DNA from: Angustibacter luteus
GTDB lineage: Bacteria > Actinomycetota > Actinomycetes > Actinomycetales > Angustibacteraceae
Reading direction: 5' to 3'
Assembly: GCF_039541115.1 (NCBI RefSeq)
Contig: NZ_BAABFP010000005.1
Span: 744,001-808,000, forward strand
Length of the DNA stretch: 64,000 nt
Shown here: piece by piece, positions 14,660-22,417 of the stretch
Numbering within the stretch: position 1 is the stretch's first letter
Layout of the letters: the number at the start of each line of letters is the position of its first letter
Position numbers and translations under genes: made by a program
Notes under the pieces: generated by a model
Databases searched by the model: none
Told to the model about the DNA's origin: nothing
Seen by the model: only the letters and a program-made list of their open reading frames with translations

Positions 14660-14907
14660 CCGCCGCACTGCAGCTGTTCGGTGCGACGGCCATCGGGGTC
14701 GGCCTGCTCGGGACGTACCTGGCCGCACAGCGACGCCTGGGCTGGCTGGTGTGCATCGCCTCGACGGTGATGTGGCGGCCGGCGCTCACCCAGGGGCGGC
14801 AGTGGGCGGCCGTCGCCAACTGCGGCCTGTCGATCGCGATCTGCCTGCGCAACTACCGCGCGACCAGTGGCCGGGACGCGCCGGCTCAGGCTCCGGGGTC
14901 CTCTTGA
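14656..14907 (+). CDS. Small membrane protein
   Basis: GTGA overlap; hydrophobic segments AIGVGLLGTYLA, GWLVCIASTVMW, AAVANCGLSIAICL. Confidence 0.5.
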   Translation: MTAALQLFGATAIGVGLLGTYLAAQRRLGWLVCIASTVMWRPALTQGRQWAAVANCGLSIAICLRNYRATSGRDAPAQAPGSS

Positions 14908-15818
14908 CCGCCGGGGGCCTCGGCCTTGAGGTAGCGCTCCACCTCGGCGGCCAGCTCGTCCGCGGACGGCAGCTTCGCGTCGTCGGTCGCCAGCAGGCTG
15001 CGGCGCTCCTGACCGCCCACGTAGGCGTCGTACTGCTGCTCCAGAGCGGTGACCACGCGGGCGACCTCGTCCGAGCCGGCGACCTGCTCGGCAATGGCCT
15101 CGCGGGTCTGCTCGGCGGCACTGAGCAGGTCCGAGCGCGGGACCACGAGTCCGGCGTAGTCGCTGAGCGAGTCGAGCAGCACAGCGGCCGCATCGGGGTA
15201 CGGGGTGTCGGACAGGTAGTGCGGCACCTGGACGACGAAGCCCAGTGCCGGGTGCCCGGCCTCGCCCAGCCGCAGCTCGAGGAGCGCGGCGGCCGAGCCC
15301 GGGATCTGCACGGTGCCCGGCCAGCTCTGGCCCTGCGGCACCAGGTCGGCGCGGTTGGCGTGCCCGATGACGCCGAGCGGACGGGTGTGCGGGACTGGCA
15401 TCCCGATCGCGTGCAGGCCCACCGTGGAGGACACGTCGAAGTGCTCGATGAGCTCGGTCACCGCGGCGGCGAAGCGTTCCCACTGGGTGTCCGGCTCCGG
15501 TCCGCGCAGGAGCAGGAAGACCTGCCCGTCCCGGTCCCGCACGGCGTACAGCACCAGCTCGGGGCGCTCGAACGAGGCGTAGTGGTCGTGGTCGTACACC
15601 ATGGCGGGGCGCCGCGACCGGTAGTCGACCAGCTGGTCCGCGTCGAAGGTGGCGACCGGCTCGTGCGGCAGGGAGCCGAGCAGGTGGTCCGCGACGAGGC
15701 GTGGGGCCGAGCCGGCGTCCACGAACCCGTTCAGCGCGTGCACCAGCACCGGGCCCGGGCCGGGCACGAGGTCCGGCGAGGGGTCGGCGAGCGTGTACAG
15801 GCTACGAGGGTCGAGCAC
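14886..15818 (-). CDS. PAC2 family proteasome assembly chaperone-like protein
   Basis: GFVDAG, DYRSRRP, GPEPDTQWERF, MPVPHTRP, VPHYL, LPSADELAAEVERYL. Confidence 0.88.
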   Translation of the reverse strand: MLDPRSLYTLADPSPDLVPGPGPVLVHALNGFVDAGSAPRLVADHLLGSLPHEPVATFDADQLVDYRSRRPAMVYDHDHYASFERPELVLYAVRDRDGQVFLLLRGPEPDTQWERFAAAVTELIEHFDVSSTVGLHAIGMPVPHTRPLGVIGHANRADLVPQGQSWPGTVQIPGSAAALLELRLGEAGHPALGFVVQVPHYLSDTPYPDAAAVLLDSLSDYAGLVVPRSDLLSAAEQTREAIAEQVAGSDEVARVVTALEQQYDAYVGGQERRSLLATDDAKLPSADELAAEVERYLKAEAPGGQEDPGA

Positions 15819-15915: not shown

Positions 15916-16065
15916 TCAGGCCGGGCGGCAGTCCTCGTCGCGCGACGTCACGGGCAGCGGGCGACCGGCGTGGTCGAGCCGGAGGCGACGGGGGTTGGCG
16001 ACGCTCTGGCTGGTCCGGGGACGCTCGCCACCAGACGCGGCGACGATGGTGGTGTCCTGGCTCAC
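15916..16065 (-). CDS. Small hypothetical protein (49 aa)
   Basis: GGGAGG RBS before GTG; AT-rich leader with a CAGAAT -10-like box. Confidence 0.4.
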   Translation of the reverse strand: MSQDTTIVAASGGERPRTSQSVANPRRLRLDHAGRPLPVTSRDEDCRPA

Positions 16066-16215
16066 GAGTGCCTCCCAGCGGTTTTCTGTTGAAGACTTGA
16101 CCATTCTGGCAGACGCGGAGACTGCCTCCGCATCCGGGGCCCTCCCCGACCCTGTGGACAACGTCGGCGGCGACCCGCGCACCTTCTCTACGGTCGGTGA
16201 CATGAGGACCCCACG

Positions 16216-16518
16216 ATGAACGGTGCCAGCTTCAGCGTCGTGCCCGCCGTGCTCGAGGCGGAGGCATCGCGGCTCGAGGCCGCCGCGCACGCCGTCCGCG
16301 ACCTGCGTGAGCACCCCGGCGTGCTCCGCGGGCGCGCCCTGGACAGCGGCGACGACGAGCTCGCTGCCGCACTGGTGGGTTTCGCCTCGGCCTGGCAGGA
16401 CGGGCTGGACCGGGTGGCGTCGCAGGCCACCCGGTGGGCGCTGGTGATGCGTACGGCGCGCGACACCTACCTGCGAACCGAGCACGCGGTCGCGTCCATG
16501 TCCTGGACGGGCCGATGA
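16216..16518 (+). CDS. WXG100/ESX-like small helical protein
   Basis: 100 aa; FSVVPAVLEAEA start, central LAAALVGFASAWQDG, C-terminal ARDTYLRTE (Y-x-x-x-E type VII signal-like). Confidence 0.65.
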   Translation: MNGASFSVVPAVLEAEASRLEAAAHAVRDLREHPGVLRGRALDSGDDELAAALVGFASAWQDGLDRVASQATRWALVMRTARDTYLRTEHAVASMSWTGR

Positions 16519-16531
16519 GCGGGCCGGCCCG

Positions 16532-18262
16532 ATGAGCGGGGCGCCGACCCTGGCCGAGGCTCCGCCGCGGGCGTTCCCCGGTGCCTCCTGCGGGGCGGAC
16601 GTCGTCCCCGGGCGGGTGTCGAGGGTGCTGGACGTCGCGACCGAGCTGGAGCAGGTCTGCGACGGCCTGCTGCGGCTGTCCGCGTTGATGCAGCGGATCG
16701 CCGTCCCCGGCTGGCAGGGCCGGGCTGCGCGCTGGTGCCAGCACGCGATCTCGTTCGACTCGCGCCCGGTGGGTCGAGCCGGGTCCGTGATGGCCCAGGC
16801 CGCCGACCACCTCCGCCAGCACGCCGCCGTCCTGGCCCGGGCGCAGCAGGTCGCGCAGGACGCGGTGACCGCCGACCTGCAGGCCGCGCGGGTGACCGCC
16901 GACTGGGCGCGCGCGGGCGCCGCCGGCCGCGACCCGATGGCGGACACCCGGATGATGCTGACGGAACAGGTCGACCGCGCCCGGACCCAGGTCCGCGCCA
17001 GCGGGGCCGATGCGGCGGCCGCGCTCAGGTCGGCCCGTGACCTCGCTCCACAGCACTCGACGCTCCAGCGTCAGCTCAGCCGCGCGCTGGACTCCGCCGA
17101 GGACATCGACGTCGGACTGGTCAAGGGAACCGCCGACCTCCTGGCGCCTCTGCTGCTCACCTCCGTGCAGCAGACGGTGAACCCCACCGGCTACCGGGGT
17201 GACGATGCGGCCCAGGCGCTCCGGGGAGCCGCGACTCATCCGGGCAGGACCACCCGCGCGCTGCTCGACCTCGACACCTGGGACGAGAGCAAGACGGTGT
17301 GGGGCGCGAGCCTGGTCCCGGCCACGCTCGTCACCGTGGCGACTGCCGGCACCGGGTCGGCGGCTCGGCTGTCCACGTTCGCGGCGCGGGTGCACTCGAT
17401 GGCGCCGGGCGCCGAAGGACTCGCACTGCGCACGGCGATCCGCGAGCAACGGCTGTACGGCCGCGAAGGGCTGAGGGTGCGGGACCTGACGCCGTACGCG
17501 AGCGAGCCCAGCCGGATCGGCACGGTGACCCGGCTGGCACCGCTGGACCACGCGGTGGCGAAGGCGGTCGCCCGAGACGCTGCGCACGCCGAGCCGGGCG
17601 TGACGCCACGGATCGAGCGGGTGGCCGACCGCCTGGGCGGCACCCGGGAGTACCCCGACACCGTGCTCAAGGGCGGGGCGTCGCTGAACCGGAAGCTCGC
17701 CGGTGACCTGGCCGGGGCCAGCGGGCGCCCGGCCCCGGTGGCCGGGCGGGTCAACGACGCCGTGCGGTACACGATCGTGTACCCCGACGACGTCTACGTC
17801 GCCCGATCGGTGCAGACCGTCGAACAGCTGCGGCACGAGGGGTTTCAGGTCGTCGAAGCCAAGTCGTTCTGGGGCAAGGAGCGCTACCAGGGGCTCAACA
17901 TCACGGTGCGCGACCCGGTCAGCGGCCGGCTGCTGGAGGTGCAGACGCACACCGCGGACAGCTTCCGCGCCGGCGGCGAGACGCACGCCGACTACGACCT
18001 CTACCGGGACGTCGGTATCGACCCCGAGCGCAAGGCAGCGCTCGAGCGGGTGATCGGCGACCGCTACCGGCTGGTGCCACCCCCGCCGGGCATCGGTGAC
18101 CTGCCGGCTGCACTCGCCCGGCTCGGCCAGGACGCACCGGCCACCTCGACCGCACCCGGACTGCTCAGCCACGACCCGCGCGCGGTCGCGCAGAACGCGG
18201 CGGCGACGCTCGGCGCCACCGGGGCGACGCGGGCGAGCGCGACACCCGCCGACGAACCGTGA
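16532..18262 (+). CDS. Putative type VII-secreted polymorphic toxin: N-terminal WXG-like region plus C-terminal RelA/SpoT-like (small alarmone synthetase) domain
   Basis: N-terminal GWQGRAA and helical repeats; C-terminal LKGGASLNRKL, NDAVRYTIV, KSFW..YQGLN, LEVQTHT, H.DY..YR. Confidence 0.7.
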   Translation: MSGAPTLAEAPPRAFPGASCGADVVPGRVSRVLDVATELEQVCDGLLRLSALMQRIAVPGWQGRAARWCQHAISFDSRPVGRAGSVMAQAADHLRQHAAVLARAQQVAQDAVTADLQAARVTADWARAGAAGRDPMADTRMMLTEQVDRARTQVRASGADAAAALRSARDLAPQHSTLQRQLSRALDSAEDIDVGLVKGTADLLAPLLLTSVQQTVNPTGYRGDDAAQALRGAATHPGRTTRALLDLDTWDESKTVWGASLVPATLVTVATAGTGSAARLSTFAARVHSMAPGAEGLALRTAIREQRLYGREGLRVRDLTPYASEPSRIGTVTRLAPLDHAVAKAVARDAAHAEPGVTPRIERVADRLGGTREYPDTVLKGGASLNRKLAGDLAGASGRPAPVAGRVNDAVRYTIVYPDDVYVARSVQTVEQLRHEGFQVVEAKSFWGKERYQGLNITVRDPVSGRLLEVQTHTADSFRAGGETHADYDLYRDVGIDPERKAALERVIGDRYRLVPPPPGIGDLPAALARLGQDAPATSTAPGLLSHDPRAVAQNAAATLGATGATRASATPADEP

Positions 18263-18354
18263 CCCGGTCCCCCAGCGGCGGGACCCGCGGGCGGGCCACG
18301 AGCCTCCCGCTCTGACAGGATCATCCGGGTCGAGTCGAGCGAGGGAGCGGACGA

Positions 18355-19119
18355 ATGGGTGCACTGGACGGACGCGTGGCACTGGTCACCGGGGCGGCAC
18401 GAGGTATCGGCGCCGCAACGGCACGTCGACTGGCGGCGGACGGCGCGAAGGTCGCCCTGCTGGACCTCGACGAGTCGGCTGCAGCCGCCACCGCCAAGGA
18501 CATTGCGTCGGAGGTCTCCGCGGACGCGATCGGGGTCGGTGCGGACGTGCGGGACCCCGAGGCGGTCCAGCGCGCGGTCGACACGGTCGTCGAGCGACTG
18601 GGGGGTCTGCACATCCTGGTCAACAACGCCGGCGTGACCAGGGACAACCTGCTGTTCAAGCTCAGCGAGGAGGACTGGGACACCGTCATCGGCGTGCACC
18701 TGAAGGGCGCGTACCTGATGAGCAAGGCCGCTCAGCAGCACTTCGTGGCGCAGAAGCACGGCCGGATCGTGAACCTGTCGAGCGTCTCGGCGCTGGGCAA
18801 CCGGGGTCAGGCCAACTACTCGGCGGCGAAGATGGGCCTGCAGGGGTTCACCCGCACCCTCGCGATCGAGCTCGGCCCGTTCGGGGTGACGGTGAACGCG
18901 GTGGCACCCGGCTTCGTGGTCACCGAGATGACCGATGCGACTGCGGCCCGGTTGGGCATCACCCCGGACCAGCTGCGGGAGGTGAGCGCGCAGGCGGCGC
19001 CGGTGCGGCGGGTGGGGTACCCCGATGACATCGCGAACGCCATCGCGTTCTTCGCCAGTGACGCCGCGTCGTTCGTCACCGGGCAGACGCTGTACGTCGA
19101 CGGAGGCGCCAAGCTCTGA
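18355..19119 (+). CDS. fabG: 3-oxoacyl-ACP reductase-like SDR
   Basis: TGAARGIG, NNAGVTRDNL, GNRGQANYSAAK. Confidence 0.85.
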   Translation: MGALDGRVALVTGAARGIGAATARRLAADGAKVALLDLDESAAAATAKDIASEVSADAIGVGADVRDPEAVQRAVDTVVERLGGLHILVNNAGVTRDNLLFKLSEEDWDTVIGVHLKGAYLMSKAAQQHFVAQKHGRIVNLSSVSALGNRGQANYSAAKMGLQGFTRTLAIELGPFGVTVNAVAPGFVVTEMTDATAARLGITPDQLREVSAQAAPVRRVGYPDDIANAIAFFASDAASFVTGQTLYVDGGAKL

Positions 19120-20903: not shown

Positions 20904-22196
20904 ATGAGTTCTGCACTGCGCCATGCCCTGCGCGTTGGCCTGCGCCCTGGCCTGCTGCTGCTCGCCCTCGTCGGCGTGCTGGCGGGGCTGCAGTCCGCCA
21001 CCACCACCGCGACGGCGACCGCGACGGCGTCGTCCTCGGCCGCCACGTCGGCCGCGGCTCCCAGCGCGCTGCACCCCTACAGCGACCCGACGGTGTTCCC
21101 GCTGCGCAAGCCGGCCTCGGTGTCCTGCGTGCTGTCGAACTGCCCTGGGCCGTACCACGGCCACTGGGCCATCGACTTCGGCGGCACCAAGGGTGACCCC
21201 GTGCACGCGGCCGGCGCCGGCGTGTTCCACGTCGGCGCGATCGACCGGTCCTGCCCGGACGCGGGCGTGACGGCCGGCACCTGGGCCTGGGTGGACCACG
21301 GTGCCGCCGGAGTCACGCGGTACAACCACCTGGACTCGATCGTGGCGAAGGACGGTGCGCTCGTCACCCCCGACACCGTGATCGGCACCATGGGGAACTG
21401 GGGCAACACCAAGCCCTGCCGGGTCAGCTACCTGCACCTGGAGTTCCGCGCGGAGCGGCTCAGCGGACCGTTCCGACCGATCCCGTCGATGAACGCCTGC
21501 CTGTCGGGCGTGCCGGTCGCCTTCCCGTCCGAGTTCGGGTACTCGTCCTGGAACTCCATCCCGGTGGACCAGGTCCACACACCAGCGGTGACCAGTGACT
21601 GCCTGGCGCCGGCGGCGACCCCGAACCGGCCCACGCTGAGTGCGCAGCGGGGTTCCCGGTCAGTGCTGGTGGTCCCCTCGGCGCGCCCGGCGGGGGTCGG
21701 GCTCGTGCGGATCAAGGCGGAGATGTACCACCCGAGCCTGCACGCGTACACGCTGCTCAAGTACCGGGACCTGCCGCCCACCCAGCGCGCGACGACGTTC
21801 GGTGGCCTGCTGGACGGGCGGACCTACCGGTTCAGCGCGGCGTACCACAACGCCTCGGGATGGAGTGCCTGGTCGACGACGCACTCCGCCATTCCCGCTT
21901 CGGTGCCGACCACCCCGCGGTACCGCGGTCTGTCGGCATCGAGCACCACGGTGAGCCACCTCTGGTACCGCAGCACCAGCCTGGGCACCTCGGCCGCCAC
22001 CTACCAGGCAGCTCGGCGCTGCACGGTCGGCGGCACGTTGCGCCCGTGGTCGTACGCGACCGTGCCGACGCCTGCCATCAGCTACCAGTGGCGCAACCTG
22101 CCCCGCGGCACCGTCTGCCAGGTCACCGTGCGCGCGCACAACCCGGTCGGGTGGAGCGGCTGGTCCCCCCGGCACTCGATCCGCACCAAGCGCTGA
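20904..22196 (+). CDS. Secreted M23 peptidase-family protein with C-terminal fibronectin type III-like domains
   Basis: Signal peptide; HWAIDF (HxxxD), TRYNHL, IGTMGNWG, YLHLEF; FN3-like YRFSAAYHNASGWSAWS and QVTVRAHNPVGWSGWS. Confidence 0.75.
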   Translation: MSSALRHALRVGLRPGLLLLALVGVLAGLQSATTTATATATASSSAATSAAAPSALHPYSDPTVFPLRKPASVSCVLSNCPGPYHGHWAIDFGGTKGDPVHAAGAGVFHVGAIDRSCPDAGVTAGTWAWVDHGAAGVTRYNHLDSIVAKDGALVTPDTVIGTMGNWGNTKPCRVSYLHLEFRAERLSGPFRPIPSMNACLSGVPVAFPSEFGYSSWNSIPVDQVHTPAVTSDCLAPAATPNRPTLSAQRGSRSVLVVPSARPAGVGLVRIKAEMYHPSLHAYTLLKYRDLPPTQRATTFGGLLDGRTYRFSAAYHNASGWSAWSTTHSAIPASVPTTPRYRGLSASSTTVSHLWYRSTSLGTSAATYQAARRCTVGGTLRPWSYATVPTPAISYQWRNLPRGTVCQVTVRAHNPVGWSGWSPRHSIRTKR

Positions 22197-22279: not shown

Positions 22280-22417
22280 TCAGGCGATCTTGAGGAGCGC
22301 GAGCTCGTCGTCGTACTCGGCGGCCAGTCGCTGGATCAGGGCGGTGTCGTCGTCGGCCACAGCCTGGTTGACCCGCTCGATGAACGTGATCTCGAGGGCA
22401 GTCTTGGTGCTGGACAT
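22280..22417 (-). CDS. Small hypothetical protein (45 aa)
   Basis: GAAGGGG RBS; GC3-rich codons; MSSTKTALEITFIERVNQAV. Confidence 0.6.
   Translation of the reverse strand: MSSTKTALEITFIERVNQAVADDDTALIQRLAAEYDDELALLKIA

Follow-up and report, generated by a model that had tools for sequence, protein, structure and literature searches.

The region analysed here is a 64,000-nucleotide stretch of the Angustibacter luteus genome (hereafter, the window), and this report concerns a two-gene locus within it that encodes a 100-aa helical protein and a 576-aa exported alarmone synthetase (EAS) with an N-terminus of the type VII secretion (T7) type. Our computational analysis revealed that the synthetase has the fold of its family and an intact active site, that the locus is fixed in its lineage and under purifying selection, and that no known immunity or hydrolase genes accompany it. 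The locus comprises the following features (pLDDT, predicted local distance difference test); other loci and genomes are cited below by our L and G numbers.

16216-16518, plus strand: WXG100/EspC-like helical hairpin of 100 aa, which probably serves the synthetase as secretion partner (targeting factor)
16532-18262, plus strand: 576-aa WXG/LXG-type EAS
16571-17056, plus strand: residues 14-175 of the EAS, PPE/LXG-like helical export domain with W61-x-G63 (PF21725, E 8e-7; PPE15 fold match)
17105-17347, plus strand: residues 192-272, linker modelled at low confidence and containing two helices of moderate hydrophobicity (Kyte-Doolittle 19-mer maxima 1.42 and 1.30; pLDDT 45-66)
17360-17539, plus strand: residues 277-336, ordered N-terminal extension of the synthetase (pLDDT 83-97; R311, R315 and D318 family-invariant)
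17540-18088, plus strand: residues 337-519, synthetase domain with Syn1-Syn4 intact (12 motif residues invariant in 45/45 clade rows)
18089-18259, plus strand: residues 520-576, C-terminal tail, of which 521-533 lie in the EAS fold, 534-544 are clade-specific with predicted docking, and the end is Ala/Gly-rich and disordered
18263-18354, no strand: 92-nt spacer at the position expected for an immunity gene, with no gene there (fold z-score -0.42)

A codon model trained on this genome scored both open reading frames (ORFs) as genuine, as had been proposed in a first-pass annotation made from the DNA alone. The 100-aa ORF exists as described there, but it begins at 16216; ATG 16202 is out of frame. 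No gene was called in the 92 nt between the synthetase stop and the downstream fabG-like gene, a consensus scan detected no terminator or promoter at the locus, and the predicted fold of the spacer was not significant. At 16510-16540, a 6-codon bridging ORF (ATG 16515) has arisen through a 17-nt tandem duplication and overlaps the partner stop and the synthetase start, whereas most congeners show a direct 4-nt overlap.

The synthetase motifs were found in the order Syn1-Syn4 at a level far beyond chance (K380..S384 L..R387 K388; D409..R412 Y T; Y452.G.N456; E469 V Q471.H473 T), together with W61-Q-G63 in the N-terminal region, which confirmed the order read in the first pass. A FastTree phylogeny of 181 domains revealed a 58-row clade (support 0.92) that contains both lineages in which the locus is fixed, and the 12 residues invariant among the clade rows are K380, S384, R387, K388, D409, R412, Y452, G454, N456, E469, Q471 and H473. 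Residues 337-523 matched the sequence of SaEAS from Streptomyces albidoflavus (PDB 8VX3) with an E of 8e-16. When the AlphaFold2 (AF2) model of the full synthetase (mean pLDDT 83.8) was used as a Foldseek query, 8VX3 was returned first and Tas1 next. Structural overlay of the model on 8VX3 gave a Z-score of 20.4 and a root mean square deviation (rmsd) of 3.0 Å over 204 aligned residues (residues 321-533), in agreement with the proposal of a RelA/SpoT-fold synthetase nearest to a secreted Streptomyces enzyme. The equivalent residues in SaEAS and this protein are D121/D409, R124/R412, N169/N456, E182/E469 and Q184/Q471; D409 is thus the alignment counterpart of the position altered in SaEAS D121A. 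SaEAS K154 was aligned to E442, and the family-consensus Lys is K444. Among named homologues, the nearest comes from Angustibacter (53% identity). With its SaEAS/Apk1-like SYNTH fold, intact catalytic residues and export domain, the protein is a member of the EAS family, and judging from its sequence it is very probably enzymatically active. The motif likeness noted earlier held for the secreted Streptomyces enzyme, which is the closest, and for the Apk1/Tas1 subfamily, but a (p)ppApp product cannot be read from the motifs, because similar enzymes differ in output, some yielding (p)ppGpp alone, some (p)ppApp alone and others the two together; according to PMC12226406, swaps of small alarmone synthetase (SAS) motifs neither predict nor change the product.

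In the N-terminal region, residues 23-122 matched Pfam T7SS_signal (PF21725) above the cut-off, and W61 and G63 were invariant (13/13). The export domain overlaid PPE15 (5xfs_B) with a Z-score of 10.9 and an rmsd of 2.8 over 155 aligned residues, and BAR domains gave similar scores. The upstream partner was present in all 10/10 related loci with an assembled 5' end, and its AF2 model is a hairpin (pLDDT 90.9). The best VIA structural rows for this hairpin were EsxA (3zbh; Z 9.9, rmsd 1.9, 89 aligned), with generic helical hairpins within 1 Z, and Foldseek returned nothing at E below 0.001. Among 20 members of the partner family, 8 weakly matched WXG100 and 10 weakly matched EspC in Pfam, and hhalign of the partner against the EsxA of this genome gave a probability of 74% and an E of 3e-5. 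These lines of evidence are weak singly and consistent jointly, and the partner is probably an upstream small helical targeting factor. The earlier view of a T7-type N-terminus with an upstream helical partner is therefore upheld by the PF21725 match and the hairpin model. The label of WXG100 partner fits in part: W60, the hairpin and the weak family matches are present, but the protein lacks WxG and has no Pfam match of its own.

The check for eccC and a T7 secretion system (T7SS) suggested by the first-pass annotation was positive, as an Esx ATPase and EsxA were found in this genome. The single FHA-containing, EccC-like (FHA-FtsK) ATPase matched EssC with an E of 4e-99, below the NCBIfam equivalog cut-offs. 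Its gene stands alone at L030:12958-17187 (C7:217958-222184), divergent from the Tad/cpaF cluster; FHA-bearing T7SS ATPases of Actinomycetota are described by Garrett et al. (PMC11217815). One canonical WXG100 gene (EsxA), above the cut-off, lies elsewhere than eccC, and the synthetase is the sole PF21725 match in the genome. EccC-like matches at E 2e-151 or better were found in 13/14 family genomes. In G006, a single case at 80% completeness, the cassette site is assembled and empty, another gene stands beside cpaF in the place of eccC, and WXG100 is unmatched. The genome analysed here has an Esx system in the broad sense (an EccC/EssC-type ATPase plus WXG100), not a canonical T7SSa, and the gene content makes it likely that the synthetase is exported by this EccC. 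Four FHA matches were found (a fhaA/fhaB pair, eccC and one other). In the region viewed, MoxR genes lacked kinase neighbours and no Esr cluster was evident, no Esr profiles having been applied. At L045, the place next to cpaF that eccC takes here is filled by a WXG-EAS-immunity-hydrolase locus.

To describe the inheritance of the locus, its flanks are given first.

14886-15818, minus strand: PAC2-family gene, fixed left flank (PF09754, E 1e-66)
15916-16065, minus strand: conserved 49-aa small ORF with an ANPRRLRL motif, flanking the cassette and divergent from it
18355-19119, plus strand: fabG-like short-chain dehydrogenase (SDR), right flank in this genus (PF13561, E 1e-67)

The synthetase domain was found in 5/5 congeners, 11/14 family genomes and 1/46 other genomes of the order, and in 8/400 genomes class-wide. 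Each family genome with the domain had a single match, except for two in G014; there, two near-identical cassette loci (L025, L026) occur in a metagenome-assembled genome with 7% contamination and may reflect binning rather than duplication. All 5/5 congeners share the order PAC2, small ORF, partner, EAS and fabG-like gene, with spacers of 54-76 nt. In other genera, SRPBCC and oxidoreductase genes separate the EAS from fabG, so the EAS-fabG adjacency probably arose by gene loss. The EAS tree (11 orthologues) was congruent with the PAC2 tree and with genus labels. Conservation along the protein is highest in the synthetase, where identity averages 53% and four close pairs gave dN/dS values of 0.12-0.35, and the EAS gene evolves about 10 times faster than PAC2. 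A second family (f12) carries the same pair at a different fixed site, after a DinB gene, with the domain in 12/49 genomes and in 7/7 of one genus. The cassette was absent in G009 and G013, where EccC is present, and in G006. Among viral contigs, 11 pattern matches yielded 0 confirmed cases; among plasmids, 172 records matched the domain alone and none exceeded 80% of the length. The locus is thus old, vertically inherited and under purifying selection. The idea of a cassette inserted between housekeeping genes was abandoned, as relatives carry other genes before fabG, and a recent insertion or island was rejected since the cassette GC content (0.71-0.78) is in line with the flanks and the locus is syntenic and tree-congruent. 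In G084, cassette and eccC are both in frameshifted pieces, possibly assembly noise, and this genome was not used.

The clade is also set apart by what follows the domain: 38-110 post-domain residues were found in 29/32 in-clade database proteins versus 9/114 outside, and tails span 47-98 residues among loci of the clade. The next gene after a long-tailed EAS varies by lineage: a fabG-like gene (6 loci), SRPBCC, a CAAX protease or convergent genes (L077, L080, L084). At distant short-tailed EAS loci, an adjacent Tyr-rich gene of 85-182 aa was found. A Tyr-rich family of 85-110 aa follows the short-tailed EAS at L045, L047, L101-L104, L108, L111 and L131 and is doubled in L101; it has no PDB match, and the three members scanned had no Pfam match. 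From its position, this family is likely an undescribed actinomycete EAS immunity family.

A profile was built from nine Tyr-rich proteins, six from loci and three database homologues. It scored 36-52 bits at 3/5 independent short-tailed loci (L108, L111 and L131, not L048 or L112), which were neither in the profile nor chosen by it, and also matched a gene adjoining the second EAS in G374. At L131/L136, it marked repeated cassettes of C-terminus (CT) plus immunity, the pattern expected of cognate immunity; here (G786 C2:393000-398000), behind a short-tailed EAS lies an array of 512-bp repeats of orphan C-terminus plus immunity, in which the immunity copies are divergent. Downstream of the long-tailed EAS, the profile gave 3 bits or less at 23/23 loci, each with at least 500 nt of downstream sequence (L027 and L099 were left out for want of sequence). 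It was also negative at in-clade L086 and L087, at loci outside both classes (L085, L106, L113, L114 and, of signal-peptide type, L046 and L109), and in 15/15 family genomes. A 5-sequence profile used to find orphan immunity in trans gave a best E of 1.2 against the six-frame translation of this genome. No stand-alone hydrolase was found in this genome either, the only HD_4 match being the long Rel, in which the HD motif is intact. As the first-pass annotation had stated, the locus has no adjacent immunity gene, and none was found in the neighbourhood survey; its suggestion of protection in trans found no counterpart among known immunity or hydrolase families. We consider it quite likely, from these sequence searches, that a dedicated immunity protein does not exist.

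The tail, which had been described as low-complexity, agrees with that description only at its Ala/Gly-rich, disordered end; residues 521-540 were modelled at pLDDT 97-98, and 521-533 fall within the SaEAS fold in the 8VX3 alignment. The tail contains no Tyr and was modelled as helix, coil and helix. When the tail (520-566) and the core (281-519) were modelled as separate chains, the score was 0.73, compared with 0.35 for the best of three controls; the docking mark applied is reached by 116/157 solved pairs and 2/215 mismatched pairs. The model runs had at least 75% of contacts in common, with a partner pLDDT of at least 63. The lowest-error contacts are predicted for residues 534-541 across 405-407, 439-441, 458-460 and 465-467, and the modelled interface also includes 307-311 and 349. 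Judging from strand topology, the tail would sit at the rim of the catalytic sheet, at the sheet end that faces away from the Y452 loop and two residues from N456 and E469. Proteins of the Tis1 type act on nucleotide-making toxic SAS (toxSAS) by blocking the acceptor site (PMC11782079, PMC12226406), so a rim-bound tail could limit access but would not be an obvious plug. On these models, a role of the tail as part of a lock is possible, if somewhat doubtful.

To place the locus among known systems, we compared it with described synthetases and Esx substrates. EAS were defined by Ahmad et al. 2025 (PMC12691689), who included 85 sequences with a WXG/LXG domain, among them the characterised AaEAS of Amycolatopsis azurea, so the proposal of an undescribed system does not hold: the architecture is already described, and the missing immunity gene and the tail are its variant features. 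According to that report, AaEAS produces (p)ppGpp, and its gene is flanked by one for a targeting factor and by a probable immunity ORF. The present locus shares with WXG/LXG EAS the small upstream targeting-factor gene, the N-terminal WXG/LXG domain and the extension before the synthetase domain. In contrast, AaEAS and Streptomyces T7 cluster B adjoin putative immunity genes, and cluster B also T7SS structural genes, while this clade has neither; the clade also differs from AaEAS, which was compared by description and not by sequence, in its 47-98-aa tail and in being fixed in its lineages. The six supplements of PMC12691689 contain no mention of Angustibacter, Kineospori-, Quadrisphaera, Kineococcus or Actinomycetales, with organism names given in files 2 and 6 only. 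An immunity-free T7-type EAS clade was not found in the literature, and its members may sit, unnamed, in the sequence lists of that paper.

SaEAS is the closest structure (about 30% identity) and is likewise without an immunity gene. No immunity genes accompany the Sec-exported SaEAS and VpEAS. Both enzymes kill when retained in the cytoplasm, as does AaEAS, and Mesh1 is a poor rescue of SaEAS and VpEAS (PMC12691689). Ahmad et al. explained immunity-free EAS by unfolded, co-translational Sec export, with Tat (folded) export avoided since a folded synthetase would poison the producer. SaEAS is guarded in this way through its signal peptide, whereas the present protein carries an Esx-type domain in its place, and the dimers that ESX systems transport are folded (PMC6986878). 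Apk1/Tas1-Tis1 and MuF Apk2-IapK-Aph1 belong to the same synthetase subfamily (6OX6: Z 10.9, rmsd 3.5, 165 aligned). These polymorphic toxins, of T6SS (type VI secretion system) or phage type, are countered by a separate acceptor-site blocker, and Apk2 also by a hydrolase; neither gene was found here, nor were the MuF N-terminus, prophage location or downstream iapK/aph1 of the Apk2 system. The fused toxSAS CapRel is a precedent for a synthetase restrained by its own C-terminus, but its folded pZFD blocks the donor site and acts on tRNA, whereas the tail here is a short extended segment without such a domain; CapRel aligned to the model over 311-522 only, and no pZFD/YXXY or Tis1-like domain was evident.

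The Esx system of Schaalia odontolytica (Wang et al. 2026 preprint, PMC13622651) is similar in that substrates lie away from the apparatus beside a small helical hairpin gene and FHA-EccC fusions occur. The Schaalia effector AesB has a disordered C-terminus and no enzyme, whereas an enzyme domain is present here. An Actinomycetales Esx restrains Saccharibacteria according to the same preprint, whose accessible text does not mention alarmone or ppGpp. As for T7SS polymorphic toxins, the upstream targeting factor is shared, but an adjacent immunity gene was found at 0/23 long-tailed loci, and patchy distribution, swappable C-termini and orphan CT-immunity cassettes were not seen, the same domain occupying the same site in 5/5 congeners.

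The reading that we favour, and which we regard as evenly poised between right and wrong, is a two-gene Esx substrate locus whose EAS is held harmless by restraint in cis together with export, with no antidote. The 100-aa hairpin would associate with the PPE/LXG-like N-terminus of the synthetase, and the two together would leave the cell via the stand-alone FHA-EccC ATPase. The cargo would transfer pyrophosphate from ATP to a purine nucleotide, making (p)ppGpp and/or (p)ppApp and draining GTP/ATP at its site of action, which would be the interior of a non-kin cell or the space around the producer. The producing cell may be spared in cis by the tail, the N-terminal extension and the bound partner, combined with prompt export. 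Under this proposal, fixation and vertical inheritance would follow because no strain-specific antidote is needed, and a fixed locus with no antidote would suit a weapon against non-kin or an extracellular alarmone source, not kin competition. A narrower version, in which tail residues 534-544 and the extension clamp the synthetase until export or cleavage and the locus was fixed in several Actinomycetales lineages as aimed at non-kin attackers such as Patescibacteria epibionts, is a long shot; if true, it would be the first enzymatic effector class of that minimal Esx pathway and a new control of toxic SAS.

Several observations weigh against restraint by the tail and against Esx export. The self-inhibition first proposed gains predicted docking, but the confident tail contacts (404-408, 439-447, 458-460, 462-467, 307-311, 349) exclude the catalytic D409, R412, Y452, N456, E469 and Q471, K444 being the sole catalytic residue listed among them. 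The docking pass may be ordinary folding, because both chains are one protein and 520-533 is SaEAS-like. Conservation is lower in the tail than in the synthetase (36% versus 53% mean identity), with a dN/dS of 0.45-0.88 over about 31 codons. Tail gain and immunity loss count as one evolutionary event, not many, because both mark one clade. In G338 (L086), an in-frame deletion has removed the export domain and left a 29-aa tail; the four motifs are all retained there, and an immunity gene is lacking. L091 combines a tail of 65 aa with an immunity-like gene, although its motifs are degenerate, it is outside the clade, and it was a training locus of the profile. EccB and EccD (TIGR03919, TIGR03920) were unmatched in this 100%-complete genome while Corynebacterium controls were positive, and EccC falls below the NCBIfam cut-offs. 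Through the deletion at L086, the synthetase domain has become fused to 27 codons from the WXG partner, and G338, unlike its six congeners, has no full-length EccC match.

The enzyme might instead be tamed, with low activity or tight transcription and the Rel hydrolase mopping up, and signal at or outside the envelope with no lock needed. The domain-only, short-tailed form tolerated in G338, the intact HD motif of Rel and the core-gene-like inheritance speak for such an enzyme, as does residue 460, which is Arg in 14/21 mostly short EAS rows and usually Ala, His or Leu in the clade, with Arg kept in this protein and in SaEAS. It is nevertheless unlikely in our view: the catalytic motifs do not vary in any of the 45 rows, the tested relatives SaEAS, VpEAS and AaEAS are lethal in the cytoplasm with Mesh1 rescuing the first two poorly (PMC12691689), and evolution about 10 times faster than that of PAC2 is more in keeping with conflict than with housekeeping signalling. 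An ordinary antibacterial T7 toxin, protected by an unrecognised immunity protein such as the SRPBCC or CAAX-protease gene product, the upstream partner or an unlinked gene product, would agree with the probable immunity ORF of AaEAS (PMC12691689), with the Rce1-like gene after most f12 copies, and with the SRPBCC gene that comes next in G007, G008, G010, G011, G014, L098 and L100 and overlaps the stop in G007, G008, G014 and L098; the immunity profile, moreover, is built on just nine sequences. However, the following gene differs between lineages, the two SRPBCC paralogues of this genome lie elsewhere, beside alcohol-dehydrogenase-like genes, and the clade shows one fixed allele with no CT-immunity arrays, unlike kin-directed polymorphic toxins such as L131, which makes such a toxin improbable here.

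We also give a low probability to a latent, CapRel-like cytoplasmic defence enzyme, in which the WXG parts would be the lock or sensor and a phage or epibiont trigger would start alarmone synthesis in the host. The lack of an immunity gene, the predicted clamping of the domain by tail and extension, and the existence of cis-inhibited toxSAS (PMC11782079) are compatible with it. On the other hand, the CapRel alignment confined to 311-522, with no pZFD/YXXY or Tis1-like domain, and the joint absence of cassette, eccC and esxA in G006, which points to export, count against it, and a fixed core locus with no viral match and no full-length plasmid match is unlike mobile defence genes. Under the favoured reading and its rivals alike, the clade joins an intact active site to a T7-type tag in the absence of an immunity gene, and at least two families retain the locus as part of their core. 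Therefore, a cis lock, a tamed enzyme or another protector must be present, and one assumption of Ahmad et al. fails. With a single copy as the sole PF21725 match, one EccC and one EsxA, the genome is a tractable system for studying export, control and target.

Three further features of the neighbourhood were observed. The 49-aa ORF (ANPRRLRL..DGRPLP) upstream of PAC2 is unannotated, has a GGAGG ribosome site and showed strong matches in 10/14 family genomes; it had no match in Pfam or NCBIfam and just an unnamed cluster (0.80) in Atlas. As a dedicated immunity gene, it was rejected, since G006 has it but no cassette, and in G008 the cassette is present with no such ORF found next to it. A weaker motif like that of this ORF was seen in two f12 genomes, between a sensor-kinase gene and a htrA-like gene. 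A secreted-looking protein with C-terminal repeats, found in only some congeners, is encoded at 20904-22196 on the plus strand, and we take its product to be peptidase-M23-like with fibronectin-like C-terminal repeats. Finally, a 45-aa ORF at 22280-22417 on the minus strand, with an IERVNQAV motif, is conserved in several relatives.

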